Positions 154-12,881 of a stretch of DNA of 12,881 nt are shown here, piece after piece. A model generated the notes under the pieces. That model saw nothing but the letters and a program-made list of their open reading frames with translations, made no database searches and was not told the DNA's origin. Each line of letters begins with the position of its first letter. The stretch's first letter is position 1. The stretch lies in the NCBI GenBank assembly GCA_964244895.1, contig CAXTKV010000039.1, positions 18,443-31,323 of the forward strand, in the 5' to 3' direction. Made by a program: the position numbers and the translations under genes. Source of the DNA: an uncultured Deinococcales bacterium (GTDB lineage: Bacteria; Deinococcota; Deinococci; Deinococcales; JAAFIG01).

Positions 154-203
154 CTCGAGAACACCGTCTGGGACGGCGTTCTCGGAAATACGTGTTGGAC
201 GGT
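154..203. repeat. REP-like family copy (short hairpin plus degenerate arm)
   Basis: CTCGAGAACACCGTC-TGG-GACGGCGTTCTCG hairpin followed by CGTGTTGGACGGT, immediately after the crotonase stop. Confidence 0.7.
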
Positions 204-204
204 A

Positions 205-993
205 CTACTCGCCCTGAAATTCTGGGGCGCGTTTTTCCAGAAACGCCGACGTACCCTCGCGCATGTCCTTGGTGGTCGAAACCATGCCGAACAGATCGGC
301 CTCTATTTCCAGTCCCTCGGCCAGCGTCACGTCCAGACCGCGCCGCACGGCTTCCTTCGCCAACCCGAGCGCGACCGGGCCATTTTTCAGGATCAAGCCC
401 GCCAGCGCGCGCGCTTCCTCAAGCGCATCCTCCGCCACGCGGTTGACCAGCCCGAGCGCGAGGGCCTCGTCCGCATCGACGTGCCGACCCGTCAGGATCA
501 GATCCAACGCGCGCCCCTCACCGATCAAGCGCGGCAAGCGCTGCGTGCCGCCGAAACCCGGAATCAAGCCCAACCCGACTTCCGGCAGGCCGAACTTGGC
601 CGTTCTGGACGCCACGCGCAGATCGCAGGCCAGCGCCAGTTCCAGCCCACCGCCGAGCGCGAACCCGTTGACCGCCGCGATCACAGGAATGGGCATGGCC
701 GCGACCGTGTTCATCACGTCCTGACCGTTCAGCGCGAGTTCCCGGCCACCGAACACGTCTTCCAGATTGCTGAATTCCCCGATGTCCGCACCCGCCACGA
801 ACGCCCGCTCACCAGCGCCCGTGATGACCAGCGCTTGCGCTTCTTCCGTGTCCAGCACGGCGTCCAACGCATCCCCGATCTCTCGCATGGTGTCTGCGTT
901 CAGGGCGTTCATGGCTTTGGGGCGGTTGATTCTCAGCACGCAAATCTCGCCGAGTTCCAGGCTCAGGTTCTTGAAATCGAAATCGTCAGTCAT
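205..993 (-). CDS. crt: Enoyl-CoA hydratase (crotonase family)
   Basis: 262 aa with crotonase motifs AFVAGADI, AVNGFALGGGLELALACD and FGLPEVGLGLIPGFGGTQRLPRLIG; AAAGGA ribosome-binding site upstream; in an operon with 3-hydroxybutyryl-CoA dehydrogenase. Confidence 0.93.
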   Translation of the reverse strand: MTDDFDFKNLSLELGEICVLRINRPKAMNALNADTMREIGDALDAVLDTEEAQALVITGAGERAFVAGADIGEFSNLEDVFGGRELALNGQDVMNTVAAMPIPVIAAVNGFALGGGLELALACDLRVASRTAKFGLPEVGLGLIPGFGGTQRLPRLIGEGRALDLILTGRHVDADEALALGLVNRVAEDALEEARALAGLILKNGPVALGLAKEAVRRGLDVTLAEGLEIEADLFGMVSTTKDMREGTSAFLEKRAPEFQGE

Positions 994-1009
994 GGTGTGT
1001 TTCCTTTCA

Positions 1010-1026
1010 GGAACACCGTACCAGAC
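1010..1026. repeat. REP-like family, degenerate half copy
   Basis: GGAACACCGTACCAGAC versus consensus GAACACCGTCCAGCAC. Confidence 0.4.
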
Positions 1027-1053
1027 AACCTTCTAAGCTTCTCGAGAAGACTC

Positions 1054-9626: not shown

Positions 9627-9666
9627 CGCGGATTCTCGAGTTCTTACTTTTGAGGAAGGTGCACGA

Positions 9667-11157
9667 ATGTCCAAGGCCACGGTTTTCCTCGACACGGATC
9701 GCGTGATCGACGAGATTTCACCGCTCCTGTTCAGCGGTTTTGCGGAGCACATGGGGCGCTGCATTTACGAGGGCATCTACGATCCGGCTTCCCCGCACGC
9801 CGACGAGCGCGGATTGCGCAAGGACGTGCTGGGCGCGCTCAAAGAACTCAACTTCCGCACGATCCGCTATCCGGGTGGCAACTTCCTGAGCGGTTACCGC
9901 TGGCAGGACGGGATTGGCCCGAAAGACCAACGCCCAAAACGCCGCGAGCTGGCCTGGCGCGCGATCGAAACCAACCAGTTCGGCACGGACGAATTCATGG
10001 AGTTCTGCAAGGAGCTGGGCACGAAACCGATGATGGCCGTCAACCTGGGGACGGGCAGCATCCAGGACGCCGCCGATCTGGTCGAGTACTGCAACGCCAA
10101 ACCTGGAACGCAGTTTTCGGATTTGCGCGCCAGGTACGGGTCATCAGCGCCCTATGGGGTGCGCCACTGGTGCCTGGGCAACGAGATGGACGGGCCTTGG
10201 CAGATCGGTCACCTGGAAGCCAGGGAATACGGCCTGAAAGCCAAGGAAGCCGCTAAGCTGATGCGTACCGTCGATCCGGGCCTCGAATTGATCCTGTGCG
10301 GTTCGTCGAACACCGCCATGCCGACCTACCCCGAATGGGATCGGGTGGCGCTCGAGGCGGCCTGGGATCAGGTGGATTACCTGTCGTTGCACTACTACGC
10401 CGAAAACAAGACCGACGACACGCCCAGCTTTCTGGCGATGAGCGCGCAGTTCGAGAGCCAACTGGACACGCTGGCCGCGACGCTCCGGTACGTCAAGGCC
10501 AAGCTGCGCTCGAAGCACGACGTGCGCCTGTCCTGGGACGAATGGAACGTCTGGTACAAGGACACCATCGGGGACGGCAACTGGGAATCCCCACCGCACC
10601 TGATCGAGGAGGTCTACAACCTCGAGGACGCGCTGGTGGTGGCGCAATGGATGTCGGTCTTTTTAAGGAAGTGCGACGTATTGAAAATCGCGTGCCTGGC
10701 GCAGATCGTCAACGTGATCGCACCGATCCTGACGACCACGGACGGGATGCTCAAGCAGAGCATCTTTTACCCCTTGGCGCTCTTCAGCCAGCACGCCTGT
10801 GGCGCATCGTTGGACGCGCTCGTCAAGGTCGCGAGTTACGACACCAAACGCTTCGGCGAGATGCCTCTGCTGGATGTCTCCGCCAGCTACGATCAGGAAC
10901 ACGCGCGCGGTGCGGCCTTCCTGGTCAACCGCAGTCTCGAGGAACACCTGGAAGTCGAGATCAACTGGCAGGGTCGCGCCCCCAAACAGGTCAGCGGCGC
11001 GTGGCAGCTTTCCGGCACCGATCCGAAGGCCGCGAACAGTTTCGCCGACCCGAACGTGGTGGTTTCAAAAGCGCTCTCGGGCGTGACGCTCAAGGATGGT
11101 CGGTTGCTGTTGAACCTGCCGCCGTTGTCCTTCACGACCGTCTCTGTGACGCATTGA
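9667..11157 (+). CDS. abfA: Alpha-L-arabinofuranosidase, GH51
   Basis: [40 protein letters not shown] (acid/base Glu), WDEWNVWY (nucleophile Glu) and [18 protein letters not shown] upstream; no signal peptide. Confidence 0.95.
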
Positions 11158-11186
11158 TCGCGGATGCGCCCGATTGCTTCAAATCA

Positions 11187-11236
11187 GAGAACACCGTCCA
11201 GCACACATATTTCAATTCGCGTGCTGGACGGTGTCC
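11187..11236. repeat. REP-like family copy (best-preserved long form)
   Basis: GAGAACACCGTCCAGCAC-ACATATTTCAATTCGC-GTGCTGGACGGTGTCC, with a perfect 14-bp stem ACACCGTCCAGCAC/GTGCTGGACGGTGT. Confidence 0.85.
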
Positions 11237-11358
11237 GGGCGTCACTCGAGCCGCAGGGACGGGCTCGCCTCGGGCATGGCAAGATCAGGGGAAGCCTTCA
11301 AGATTCGCCCGCAACCGGGCCGACCTGATCCGACCGATCTGACTCGAGGAGCGTACTC

Positions 11359-12881
11359 ATGAACGAACAATGTAGCGTCGGTGTGGACTTCGGCACGCTC
11401 TCCGGGCGCGCCGTGATCGTGCGCGTGCGCGACGGAGCCGAACTGGGCAACGCGGTTTTTGACTACCCGCACGGCGTGATCGACCAGACGTTGCCCGCCA
11501 GCGGCGCGAAACTGCCGCCCGAATGGGCCTTGCAGGACCCGACGGATTATCTTGGGGTCTTCAAGAACGCCGTCCCCGAAGCCCTGCGGCAGAGCGGCGT
11601 GAGCGCGCAGGACATCGTCGGGATCGGCATCGATTTCACGGCCTGCACGATCCTGCCGACCACCACGGACGGCACGCCGCTCTGCACCCTGGGGGCGTAC
11701 CGCAACCGCCCGCACGCCTACGTCAAGCTCTGGAAGCACCACGCGGCGCAACCTCAGGCGGATCGGATCAACGCCGTGGCTCACGCCAGAGGCGAGGCGT
11801 GGTTGCCGCGCTACGGCGGCAAGATCTCGAGCGAATGGATGTTCGCCAAAGCCCTGCAAATCCTGGAAGAAGACCCGGAAATCTACCGCGCCGCCGACCG
11901 CATGATCGAAGCCGCCGATTGGGTCGTGTGGCAACTGTGCGGGGTTGAAACGCGCAACACCTGCACCGCCGGGTACAAGGCGAACTTCCAGGACGGTCAG
12001 TACCCGTCTCGGGAATACCTGGCGGCGCTCAACCCAGCGTTCGCGGATTTCCCGCAACAAAAACTCTCCGATCACCTGTCCGCGCTGGGCGCTCGAGCGG
12101 GCGGCCTGACCTCAGAGGCTGCCGCCTGGACGGGCCTGCCGGAGGGCATCGCGGTGGCGGTCGCCAACGTCGACGCGCACGTGGCCGTGCCCGCCGCCAA
12201 CGCCGTGGAACCCGGCCAGATGGTCTTGATCATGGGCACCAGCACCTGCCACATCGTCAACGGCGAGACGCTCAGTGAAGTCCCCGGCATGTGCGGCGCG
12301 GTGGACGGCGGCGTCAGCCCCGGCTTGTTCGGTTACGAGGCCGGGCAGAGCGGCGTCGGGGATATCTTCGGCTGGTTCGTCAAGAACGGCGTCCCGCCCG
12401 AGTACGCCGACGCGGCGCGGGCGGCGGGCGTGGGCGTTCACGAATACCTGAGCGGTCTGGCGCAAACGCAGAAACCCGGTGAGCACGGATTGATCGCGCT
12501 CGACTGGTGGAACGGCAACCGCAGCGTGCTGGTGGACACGGAACTTTCGGGGGTGATCGTCGGCATGACCCTGGCGACCCGCGCACCAGACATCTACCGA
12601 GCGCTGATCGAATCGACCGCTTACGGTACGCGCACGATCATCGAAGCCTTCGAGGATTCCGGCGTGCCCATCAAGGAACTCGTGATCGCAGGCGGGTTGA
12701 TCAAGAACGAAATGCTGATGCAGATTTACGCCGACGTGACCGGACGAGAACTGAGCGTGGCCGCGTCCAGCCAGGGACCGGCGCTGGGCAGCGCGATTCA
12801 CGCGGCGGTGGCCGCCGGCGCTTACCCGGACATTTACGCGGCAGCCGCCAGCATGGGCAGATCTTTCAAGGGTGCGTACAA
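11359..12881 (+). CDS. araB: L-ribulokinase (FGGY family), truncated at the 3' end by the window
   Basis: Absent from the ORF track because no stop lies in the window. GAGGAG then ATG 11359; translates MNEQCSVGVDFGTLSGRAVIV, WALQDP, GIGIDFTACT, KLWKHHAAQ, YGGKISSEW, MGTSTCH, EAGQSGVGDIF and LDWWNGNRS. Confidence 0.93.
   Translation, partial: MNEQCSVGVDFGTLSGRAVIVRVRDGAELGNAVFDYPHGVIDQTLPASGAKLPPEWALQDPTDYLGVFKNAVPEALRQSGVSAQDIVGIGIDFTACTILPTTTDGTPLCTLGAYRNRPHAYVKLWKHHAAQPQADRINAVAHARGEAWLPRYGGKISSEWMFAKALQILEEDPEIYRAADRMIEAADWVVWQLCGVETRNTCTAGYKANFQDGQYPSREYLAALNPAFADFPQQKLSDHLSALGARAGGLTSEAAAWTGLPEGIAVAVANVDAHVAVPAANAVEPGQMVLIMGTSTCHIVNGETLSEVPGMCGAVDGGVSPGLFGYEAGQSGVGDIFGWFVKNGVPPEYADAARAAGVGVHEYLSGLAQTQKPGEHGLIALDWWNGNRSVLVDTELSGVIVGMTLATRAPDIYRALIESTAYGTRTIIEAFEDSGVPIKELVIAGGLIKNEMLMQIYADVTGRELSVAASSQGPALGSAIHAAVAAGAYPDIYAAAASMGRSFKGAY

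Follow-up and report, generated by a model that had tools for sequence, protein, structure and literature searches.

The window analysed here is a stretch of 12,881 nt (62.1% GC) from contig CAXTKV010000039.1 of assembly GCA_964244895.1 (positions 18,443-31,323, forward strand), and it carries protein-coding genes, REP-like repeats and dispersed copies of the palindrome CTCGAG (Table 1). We counted exactly 47 copies against 5.2 expected (200 dinucleotide shuffles gave a mean of 5.18 and a maximum of 11), which agrees in number and position with the preliminary description's estimate of about 47 sites and a roughly 10-fold excess. The sites comprise 18 CTC GAG (Leu-Glu), 9 TCG AGN and 3 CGA (3172, 9289 and 12092), with 17 being intergenic. 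The use of all three frames, the four Ser-Ser pairs in hbd, TCG AGG at 6806 and 8784, and CGA at 9289 and 12092 had all been described correctly, as had the near absence of GAGCTC, which occurs at 2901 and 8668 only. The REP-like repeats are a separate repeat family whose ends often bear CTCGAG.

Table 1. Features of the window and the CTCGAG sites that they contain
Position	Strand	Feature
154..12097	.	47 dispersed CTCGAG copies (3.6/kb)
154..206	.	REP-like palindromic repeat, core AACACCGT, adjoining site 154
1054..1521	-	DUF3291 gene; 2 Leu-Glu sites
1730..2581	-	hbd, 3-hydroxyacyl-CoA dehydrogenase; 6 sites (Ser-Ser at 1956, 2106, 2226, 2436; 2 Leu-Glu)
2666..3190	-	Zinc-ribbon protein gene; 3 sites, one of them CGA
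3218..4959	-	Two nucleoside phosphorylase genes (3218-3940, 4231-4959); 5 Leu-Glu sites, 2 further sites in the gap
4083..4139	.	REP-like repeat cluster; sites 4083 and 4110 on its flanks
5104..6111	-	GntR-family regulator; 3 Leu-Glu sites
6112..6461	.	Divergent intergenic region; sites 6187, 6242, 6283, 6318; no REP-like half-site
6462..12879	+	Sugar ABC transporter, alpha-L-arabinofuranosidase and FGGY kinase genes; sites in three frames (6791, 6806, 7626, 8712, 8784, 9289, 10351, 10621, 10936, 11826, 12092)
7785..7840	.	REP-like hairpin; loop holds site 7814

Throughout the genome that carries the window (G000), CTCGAG is the commonest hexamer, with 21,883 copies in 5.12 Mb (4.3/kb, about 1 per 230 bases), and every contig (n = 328, up to 66 kb) carries it at 1.6-9.1/kb. 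Observed/expected (O/E) ratios under Markov models of orders 0 to 4 were 12.7, 9.1, 9.8, 3.4 and 1.25, respectively; models of high order learn the motif itself, 71% of CTCGA being followed by G. When hexamers were ranked at order 2, CTCGAG reached 9.84 and the next word 3.84. Once the motif was masked from the background, O/E in repeat-free intergenic DNA was 14-20, and in a control that preserved both the proteins and their codon usage it was 4.1, 16.1 and 7.4 across the three reading frames. The excess is therefore strong and genome-wide, extending beyond the window, and the off-frame and intergenic values support the earlier argument that Leu-Glu codon bias is insufficient to explain it. 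Other TCGA palindromes are scarce (GTCGAC 540, TTCGAA 553, ATCGAT 1,147), and many 6-bp palindromes are strongly avoided (e.g., CGGCCG with 30 sites and CCCGGG with 60). On these counts and ratios, we discarded codon bias, a surplus of TCGA and the REP-like repeats as explanations.

The flanks of CTCGAG show weak preferences only. Site spacing was slightly more regular than that of five control words (CV 0.96 versus 1.00-1.17), and no helical periodicity was seen in site-to-site distances to about 130 bp (codon phase only) or in 21-bp bins, which were flat to 400 bp. In the closed chromosome of G006, from the same Deinococcales family, density was even (72-106 sites per 20 kb in 19 samples). 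No dipeptide in G000 is over-used more strongly than Leu-Glu (2.1-fold), whose O/E was 2.1-2.3 in four family genomes compared to 1.04-1.44 in 11 others; among orthologues, 352 Leu-Glu positions were found in G000 only versus 224 in the outgroup only.

Comparison with relatives showed that the motif is family-wide: its density was 4.3-6.8/kb in all 19 genomes of this uncultured family (G000 and 18 others), including 5.6/kb in a genome of 45% GC, and 0.03-2.9/kb in 22 other Deinococcales genomes. Within the order there is a gradient, from depletion in family f3 through a mild excess in f2, f4 and f5 to the extreme of the G000 family. A viral scan gave 125 stretches, 80 of them with DNA, and several carried 5-7.6 CTCGAG/kb. 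Thirteen of the viral stretches were compared with G000 proteins and 12 gave no match, so that no link between any of these stretches and the family could be drawn.

Rates of gain and loss were estimated at orthologous sites in two genera (g4 and g5) related to, and distinct from, that of the window, the g5 replicate being built on two of three regions. We used a 12-state model; it replaced a two-state model in which gain is inflated, since that model conditions on the remaining five bases of the motif. Over both genera, loss was slowed 6-12-fold and gain was raised about 3-18-fold. In g4 (6 genomes, 260 Leu-Glu sites), gain was multiplied by 4.8 and loss by 0.083, and the loss-only and gain-only models were 56 and 117 log-likelihood units worse, respectively. 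A one-parameter fixation bias (S = 4.0) came within 0.8 units of the full g4 fit; with a free root, gain was multiplied by 2.9 and fixing gain at 1 cost about 5-6 units. In g5 (5 genomes, 111 sites), gain was multiplied by 17.8 and loss by 0.11 (loss-only -29.8, gain-only -16.9), and the one-parameter fixation model was poor (-7.8); in this genus the background model for Leu codons seems to be misspecified. Synonymous losses on terminal branches numbered 23 versus 108 expected, so that sites are kept in orthologues beyond codon conservation, and transversions were protected as well (C3>G, 1 versus 14.2; G4>C, 0 versus 5.7). Four-fold-site divergence at least 6 bases from the motif was 0.96-1.03 of the gene mean; the rate effect is confined to the six bases of CTCGAG. 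Because gain is raised as well as loss slowed, with transversions covered, these results indicate that the motif is actively driven and not merely protected, and the two-way bias leaves drive, selection or strand-biased repair as the mechanisms to consider. Four sequencing runs from one study contained a single clonal strain as contigs, without usable variants.

The preliminary description had proposed a HIP-like system on the XhoI/PaeR7I-type site, perhaps with an orphan methylase. The HIP-like part stands, the motif being genome- and family-wide, frame-independent and conserved in orthologues, while the methylase part found no support within the family. Among four Pfam classes, no methylase was found to be common to G000 (91% complete) and G006; of the 213 beta, gamma and C5 matches, 80 were extracted for clustering, and the search for the alpha class covered 6 of the 19 genomes. 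An alpha-class methylase is common to G002, G003 and G006 (58-71% identical), with a specificity unreadable from sequence. The TaqI-like methylase of other Deinococcales and a second orphan methylase family each had orthologues in 0 of 19 family genomes. A C5 methylase occurs in 7 of 8 g5 genomes without a match in G000, where no C5 methylase was found. The methylase genes of G000 were rejected as CTCGAG readers: one adjoins a NotI-family nuclease, one lies in a site-free island of 42% GC next to a 391-aa frame, two look by eye like HsdM and BREX PglX, and a further small gene belongs to an ICE-like region. Very-short-patch repair by an m5C methylase and Vsr was also rejected, since the 19 family genomes gave no Vsr (PF03852), G000 yielded no C5 enzyme and transversions are protected too. 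An XhoI/PaeR7I restriction-modification system would share the recognition site, but XhoI-family nucleases (PF04555) were found in 0 of 19 family genomes (3 of the 22 other Deinococcales have one) and the site is enriched, not avoided; this candidate was rejected.

Orphan m6A CTCGAG methylases are reported as active in Marinithermus hydrothermalis, Meiothermus ruber and M. chliarophilus (PMC4752239). These share the site and the order with our case, and f4 and f5 show a milder CTCGAG excess; the difference is that the TaqI-like query enzyme had no orthologue in the 19 family genomes. The same survey (Blow et al. 2016, PMC4752239) describes CTCGAG methylases in Nocardia. There the excess on record is local, with sites clustered close to dnaA, unlike the genome-wide excess seen here. 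Cyanobacterial HIPs, which include HIP1 (GCGATCGC) and the alternates GGCGCC, GCsGC and rCCGGy (Elhai 2015, PMC4390886; Xu et al. 2018, PMC5861425), resemble CTCGAG: they too are short palindromes and outlier words, dispersed within and between genes, shared across a clade and retained in orthologues. The phylum and the word are different, and a family-wide cognate methylase was not found, although four HIP1-rich strains also have no recognisable CGATCG methylase (Elhai 2015, PMC4390886). HIP1 sensu stricto was rejected: the word is not GCGATCGC, nor does it have a GATC core, the host belongs to the Deinococcales, and HIP1 itself has 283 copies in G000 (O/E 0.28 at order 2). Compared with plasmid pANL, the sole cyanobacterial replicon used (CGATCG 3.6/kb, HIP1 2.1/kb), CTCGAG has a density similar in magnitude to that of CGATCG, the six-letter core of HIP1, and not clearly higher.

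Known uptake sequences are longer (9-12 bases) and asymmetric. CTCGAG differs from those of Pasteurellaceae and Neisseria in its strict 6-bp palindrome, weak flank preference and 21,883 copies, compared to the 765-1,892 per genome given by Findlay and Redfield (2009, PMC2817400). It resembles them in that the encoded peptide is about doubled, as that source describes for uptake sequences, in the presence of competence genes, and in recently acquired genes without sites (a foreign R-M methylase gene at C114 has 0). The competence machinery is intact in the family: 18 of the 19 family genomes have ComEC and all 19 have ComEA-type domains, in as many as 5 copies, and G000 has a DprA-like and 4 pilin-like frames (by motif). 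ComEC is also present in 10 of 14 control genomes and exactly 1 ComEA-type domain in 22 of 22 others, motif-poor f3 included, and therefore neither discriminates; the extra ComEA-like copies were not found in g5, the genus with the strongest bias. The DNA-uptake signal that the preliminary description also suggested would be compatible with these data. HIP1 is described as raising transformation (10.1101/2024.09.10.611283), which favours an uptake reading; that effect is largely methylation-dependent, and as no shared methylase was found here, this counts against the same reading.

Together, these results establish CTCGAG as a genome- and family-wide highly iterated palindrome, and the explanation we tentatively prefer, at a little under even confidence, is that a reader protein favours the motif strand at uptake or recombination. 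Such a putative protein would read the six bases and favour the motif-bearing strand in DNA uptake or homologous recombination; through DNA exchange among relatives, new sites would tend to fix and broken ones to be restored (molecular drive), and permissive positions would fill with CTCGAG until protein constraint halted the spread. The strict 6-bp palindrome points to a putative dimeric reader. A milder version with orphan m6A CTCGAG methylases was probably wider in the order and may then have been amplified in the G000 family. A bolder form, possible but doubtful, is a methylase-free HIP system independent of cyanobacteria, in which a putative dimeric reader of unmodified CTCGAG would have replaced the orphan methylases of sister lineages, with drive strong enough to rewrite proteins.

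It is rather unlikely that the sites are by-products of repair, with a CTCGAG-specific modification or binding protein biasing mismatch repair (MutS/MutL or NucS) to the motif strand, an origin that Elhai proposed for HIPs (PMC4390886). The raised gain, reduced loss and site-confined effect are what it predicts, the g5 gain exceeds a simple-selection prediction, G000 has mutS and mutL (by motif) and a NucS-like frame (by eye), and the published Marinithermus and Meiothermus enzymes and the shared alpha-class methylase would also fit. However, Elhai's model saturates at about 1 site/kb (PMC4390886), below the 4.3-6.8/kb seen, divergence beside sites is not lowered, and the negative searches for a methylase common to G000 and G006, for the TaqI-like and second orphan families and for Vsr count against it. 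Direct selection, in which a nucleoid-organising or chromosome-maintenance protein binds sites of small individual benefit, seems improbable: the one-parameter g4 fit, the even density on G006, the regular spacing and an architectural interpretation of HIP1 periodicity (PMC5861425) favour it, but it would be costly across 20,000-35,000 near-random sites, with proteins altered too, and the g5 fit is poor, helical periodicity is lacking and there is no candidate protein. That the sites merely follow from preferred codons, from the avoidance of other palindromes and from REP-like repeats has next to no credibility; palindrome avoidance, the maximal-order O/E, Leu-Glu codon odds of 5-9 in three f5 genomes too and the sites within repeats speak for it, but the excess between genes and off frame, together with the rate bias, refutes it, and only 2,530 of the 21,883 G000 sites lie near a repeat half-site, with high density persisting at 45% GC.

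We found no paper describing CTCGAG iteration in Deinococcales; Delaye and colleagues reportedly considered HIP1 among prokaryotes in 2011, which may bear on novelty. To our knowledge, HIP1 has had no settled mechanism in three decades, and work has been confined to cyanobacteria. A second, independent HIP-type case in another phylum would allow a comparative test of mechanism, and the methylase-bearing Meiothermus and Marinithermus, being in culture, make laboratory work feasible. For the family itself, CTCGAG is a compositional marker for binning, and XhoI would shred its DNA.

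The preliminary description had reported an approximately 10-fold excess of CTCGAG in the window over 4–5 expected sites, and shuffling bore this out: 47 sites compare with 5.2 expected (200 dinucleotide shuffles, maximum 11). Every coordinate and frame that it named was correct on recount, as was its estimate of about two GAGCTC copies (n = 2). The sites fall in Leu-Glu codons (18), TCG AGN (9), CGA (3) and intergenic DNA (17), and the genes bearing them are ordinary metabolic and sugar-transport genes; nucleoside phosphorylase paralogues stand in tandem at 3218–3940 and 4231–4959. 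The enrichment extends throughout the window's own genome (G000; 5.12 Mb, 62.7% GC, 91% complete), where CTCGAG is the commonest hexamer (21,883 sites, 4.3 per kb), present at 1.6–9.1 per kb across all 328 contigs with near-random spacing (CV 0.96). Observed/expected (O/E) ratios under Markov orders 0–4 were 12.7, 9.1, 9.8, 3.4 and 1.25. The last two approach or enter the range of 1–2 that the preliminary description had set against its own reading, but those models are trained on CTCGAG itself; with the motif masked from the background, O/E was 14 in repeat-free intergenic regions and 20 (8.0 per kb) in short spacers with repeats removed. Density was highest directly downstream of stop codons. 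Transition neighbours were mildly enriched in intergenic DNA (CCCGAG 2.9-, TTCGAG 1.9- and CTTGAG 1.7-fold), suggesting decay flux or graded recognition. G000 also carries a palindromic, REP-like repeat in intergenic DNA (core AACACCGT), counted as 2,926 exact cores, 950 complete 23-base palindromes with ≤4 mismatches and 6,665 half-sites; it is about 20 times rarer in a sample of the closed family genome G006, and a motif search found no Y1/RAYT transposase.

Genes of G000 were predicted with a purpose-built codon model, and 3,752 of 4,410 (score >25) were analysed. With protein and codon usage held fixed, O/E in the three frames was 4.1, 16.1 and 7.4, in agreement with the earlier claim that codon bias is not the cause. 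CTCGAG encodes 59% of Leu-Glu pairs, and Leu-Glu is the most over-used dipeptide (2.12; reverse order Glu-Leu, 0.98). Among orthologues, Leu-Glu stood at 352 G000-only places versus 224 outgroup-only, and three control dipeptides showed no G000-only excess. The TTA GAG spelling of Leu-Glu was 7.4-fold over the background Leu codon model.

The nearest relatives of G000 by RpoC are Deinococcales MAGs. CTCGAG density was about 4.6–6.8 per kb (sizes rounded) in all 18 other genomes of its family and 0.03–2.9 per kb in 22 Deinococcales outside it, family f3 being depleted. In sampled regions, off-frame sites reached 1.1–2.5 per kb in four family genomes versus 0–0.44 in 11 others, and the G006 chromosome was uniform (72–106 per 20 kb, 19 samples). 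Leu-Glu codon odds in three genomes of another family, f5 (G030, G034 and G038; 5–9), equal those of G000 (8.7) and G006 (5.2), which counts against a sharp family boundary; odds in family members G003 (40) and G004 (151) were much higher than in those three. Sister lineages probably carry a milder bias. GAGCTC had 0–25 copies in 16 of 18 relatives, an extreme avoidance, and most other 6-bp palindromes are avoided in G000 (CGGCCG, 30; CCCGGG, 60). Family genomes hold many patchily distributed methylases; both traits parallel restriction-rich cyanobacteria with HIP1.

Gain and loss rates come from relatives' genera, G000 being the sole member of its own. Five 20-kb stretches of G003 were compared by alignment with five other members of its genus (g4, ~87% identical), excluding hits <80% identity and gap-adjacent columns. 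Sites proved conserved in orthologues: synonymous losses on terminal branches numbered 23 versus 108 expected, transitions and transversions alike, and single-step gain opportunities were nearly exhausted (42); these counts may include a few shadow frames. A 12-state codon-pair model at 260 conserved Leu-Glu sites gave gain ×4.8 and loss ×0.083 (free root: ×2.9, about 1.7–4.4, and ×0.11). Models allowing protection alone or creation alone lost 56 and 117 log units of fit, respectively; one fixation-bias parameter (S = 4.0) came within 0.8. At 111 sites in genus g5, from two of three searched regions, the direction was the same (gain ×17.8, loss ×0.11; free root ×9.4 and ×0.16); there, the one-parameter model was 7.8 units worse and the codon background seems imperfectly modelled. 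Switching between TTA GAG and CTCGAG, two changes apart, was seen in g4. Up to 5 bases from a site, divergence at four-fold positions was 0.87 of the gene-wide mean; farther out it was 0.96–1.03. Given these two-way rates and the confinement of reduced divergence, the bias is two-way and confined to the six bases of the site.

The preliminary description had proposed a HIP-like system, perhaps with an orphan methylase. The first part holds: CTCGAG behaves like the HIP class and has those class features that were tested, although its word differs from HIP1 and it is not to be called denser (CGATCG, 3.6 per kb on S. elongatus plasmid pANL, the sole replicon compared). The second is not supported: no methylase shared by G000 and G006 turned up in the four classes searched (alpha class in 6 of 19 genomes). 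The methylases of G000 itself were set aside as candidates. They sit in loci of restriction-modification (R-M), type I-like, BREX-like or ICE-like character, and the genome has no C5 methylase. G006 has two weak gamma-class matches, two alpha-class genes, no beta-class match and one C5 gene (42% GC, without CTCGAG sites). One alpha-class enzyme is common to G002, G003 and G006 and was not found in G000, G004 or G008. When 80 of the 213 beta, gamma and C5 matches were clustered, only small groups emerged; the biggest was a C5 enzyme found in 7 of 8 g5 genomes. Active orphan m6A CTCGAG methylases are described for Marinithermus hydrothermalis, Meiothermus ruber and M. chliarophilus by Blow et al. 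(PMC4752239). A TaqI-like enzyme of G025, whose CTCGAG specificity is assumed, served as a stand-in query: three f5 genomes contained close homologues, the 19 family genomes none. A second, apparently orphan gamma-class family, conserved in 4 of the 6 f2 genomes and in one f5 genome (L190, L193, L196, L232, L233), was likewise found in none of the 19. Different genera might nevertheless rely on unrelated enzymes, which leaves family-wide absence unproven. XhoI-family nucleases occurred in 0 of 19 family genomes and 3 of 22 other Deinococcales, and Vsr in 0 of 19; the excess is not explained as an XhoI R-M site, is not a Vsr product, and the word is not a classical uptake sequence. The openly accessible literature searched yielded no description of this excess in Deinococcales; a 2026 preprint mentions CTCGAG/TCGA methylation shared in hot-spring host–phage groups (10.64898/2026.06.24.734251). 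The 110-kb viral contig IMGVR_UViG_3300018422_000001 (L503/L504) carries 5.4–7.2 CTCGAG per kb and no GAGCTC in the two stretches examined; these showed no match to G000 proteins, so the contig could not be tied to this family.

Features located in G000, the window and related stretches
Feature	Location	Remark
Extra ComEA-like proteins	G000 C225, C115, C240, C39:2760; L577-L582, L588, L590, L591	
BREX-like locus	G000 C139:8305-14325	cut by contig end
ICE-like region	G000 C50	
Dam-class methylase adjoining NotI-family nuclease	G000 C6:30755-32667	
Low-GC R-M-like island	G000 C114:10620-12760	
REP-like repeat	window 154-206, 2612-2657, 4089-4139, 5032-5082, 7785-7840, 11190-11235	

Competence genes are retained in the family, and four of its five genera have extra short ComEA-like proteins; genomes of g5, like each of the 22 other Deinococcales, have exactly one. 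The extra HhH proteins, up to five per genome in g1–g4, are short and basic with apparent signal peptides. Tentatively, the leading explanation is that strands with and without CTCGAG would compete when relatives take up or recombine each other's DNA, thereby producing the bias. HIP1 is reported to improve transformation, mostly if methylated (10.1101/2024.09.10.611283), HIP1 co-varies with uptake-related genes (PMC13756078), and peptides encoded by uptake sequences are doubled (PMC2817400). A replication repair bias (cf. PMC4390886) is an unlikely but serious alternative, and architectural selection (cf. PMC5861425) appears somewhat less probable still. Together, these results indicate that the CTCGAG excess is real, family-wide and actively driven, and that the system is a variant of the HIP kind with a putative reader.
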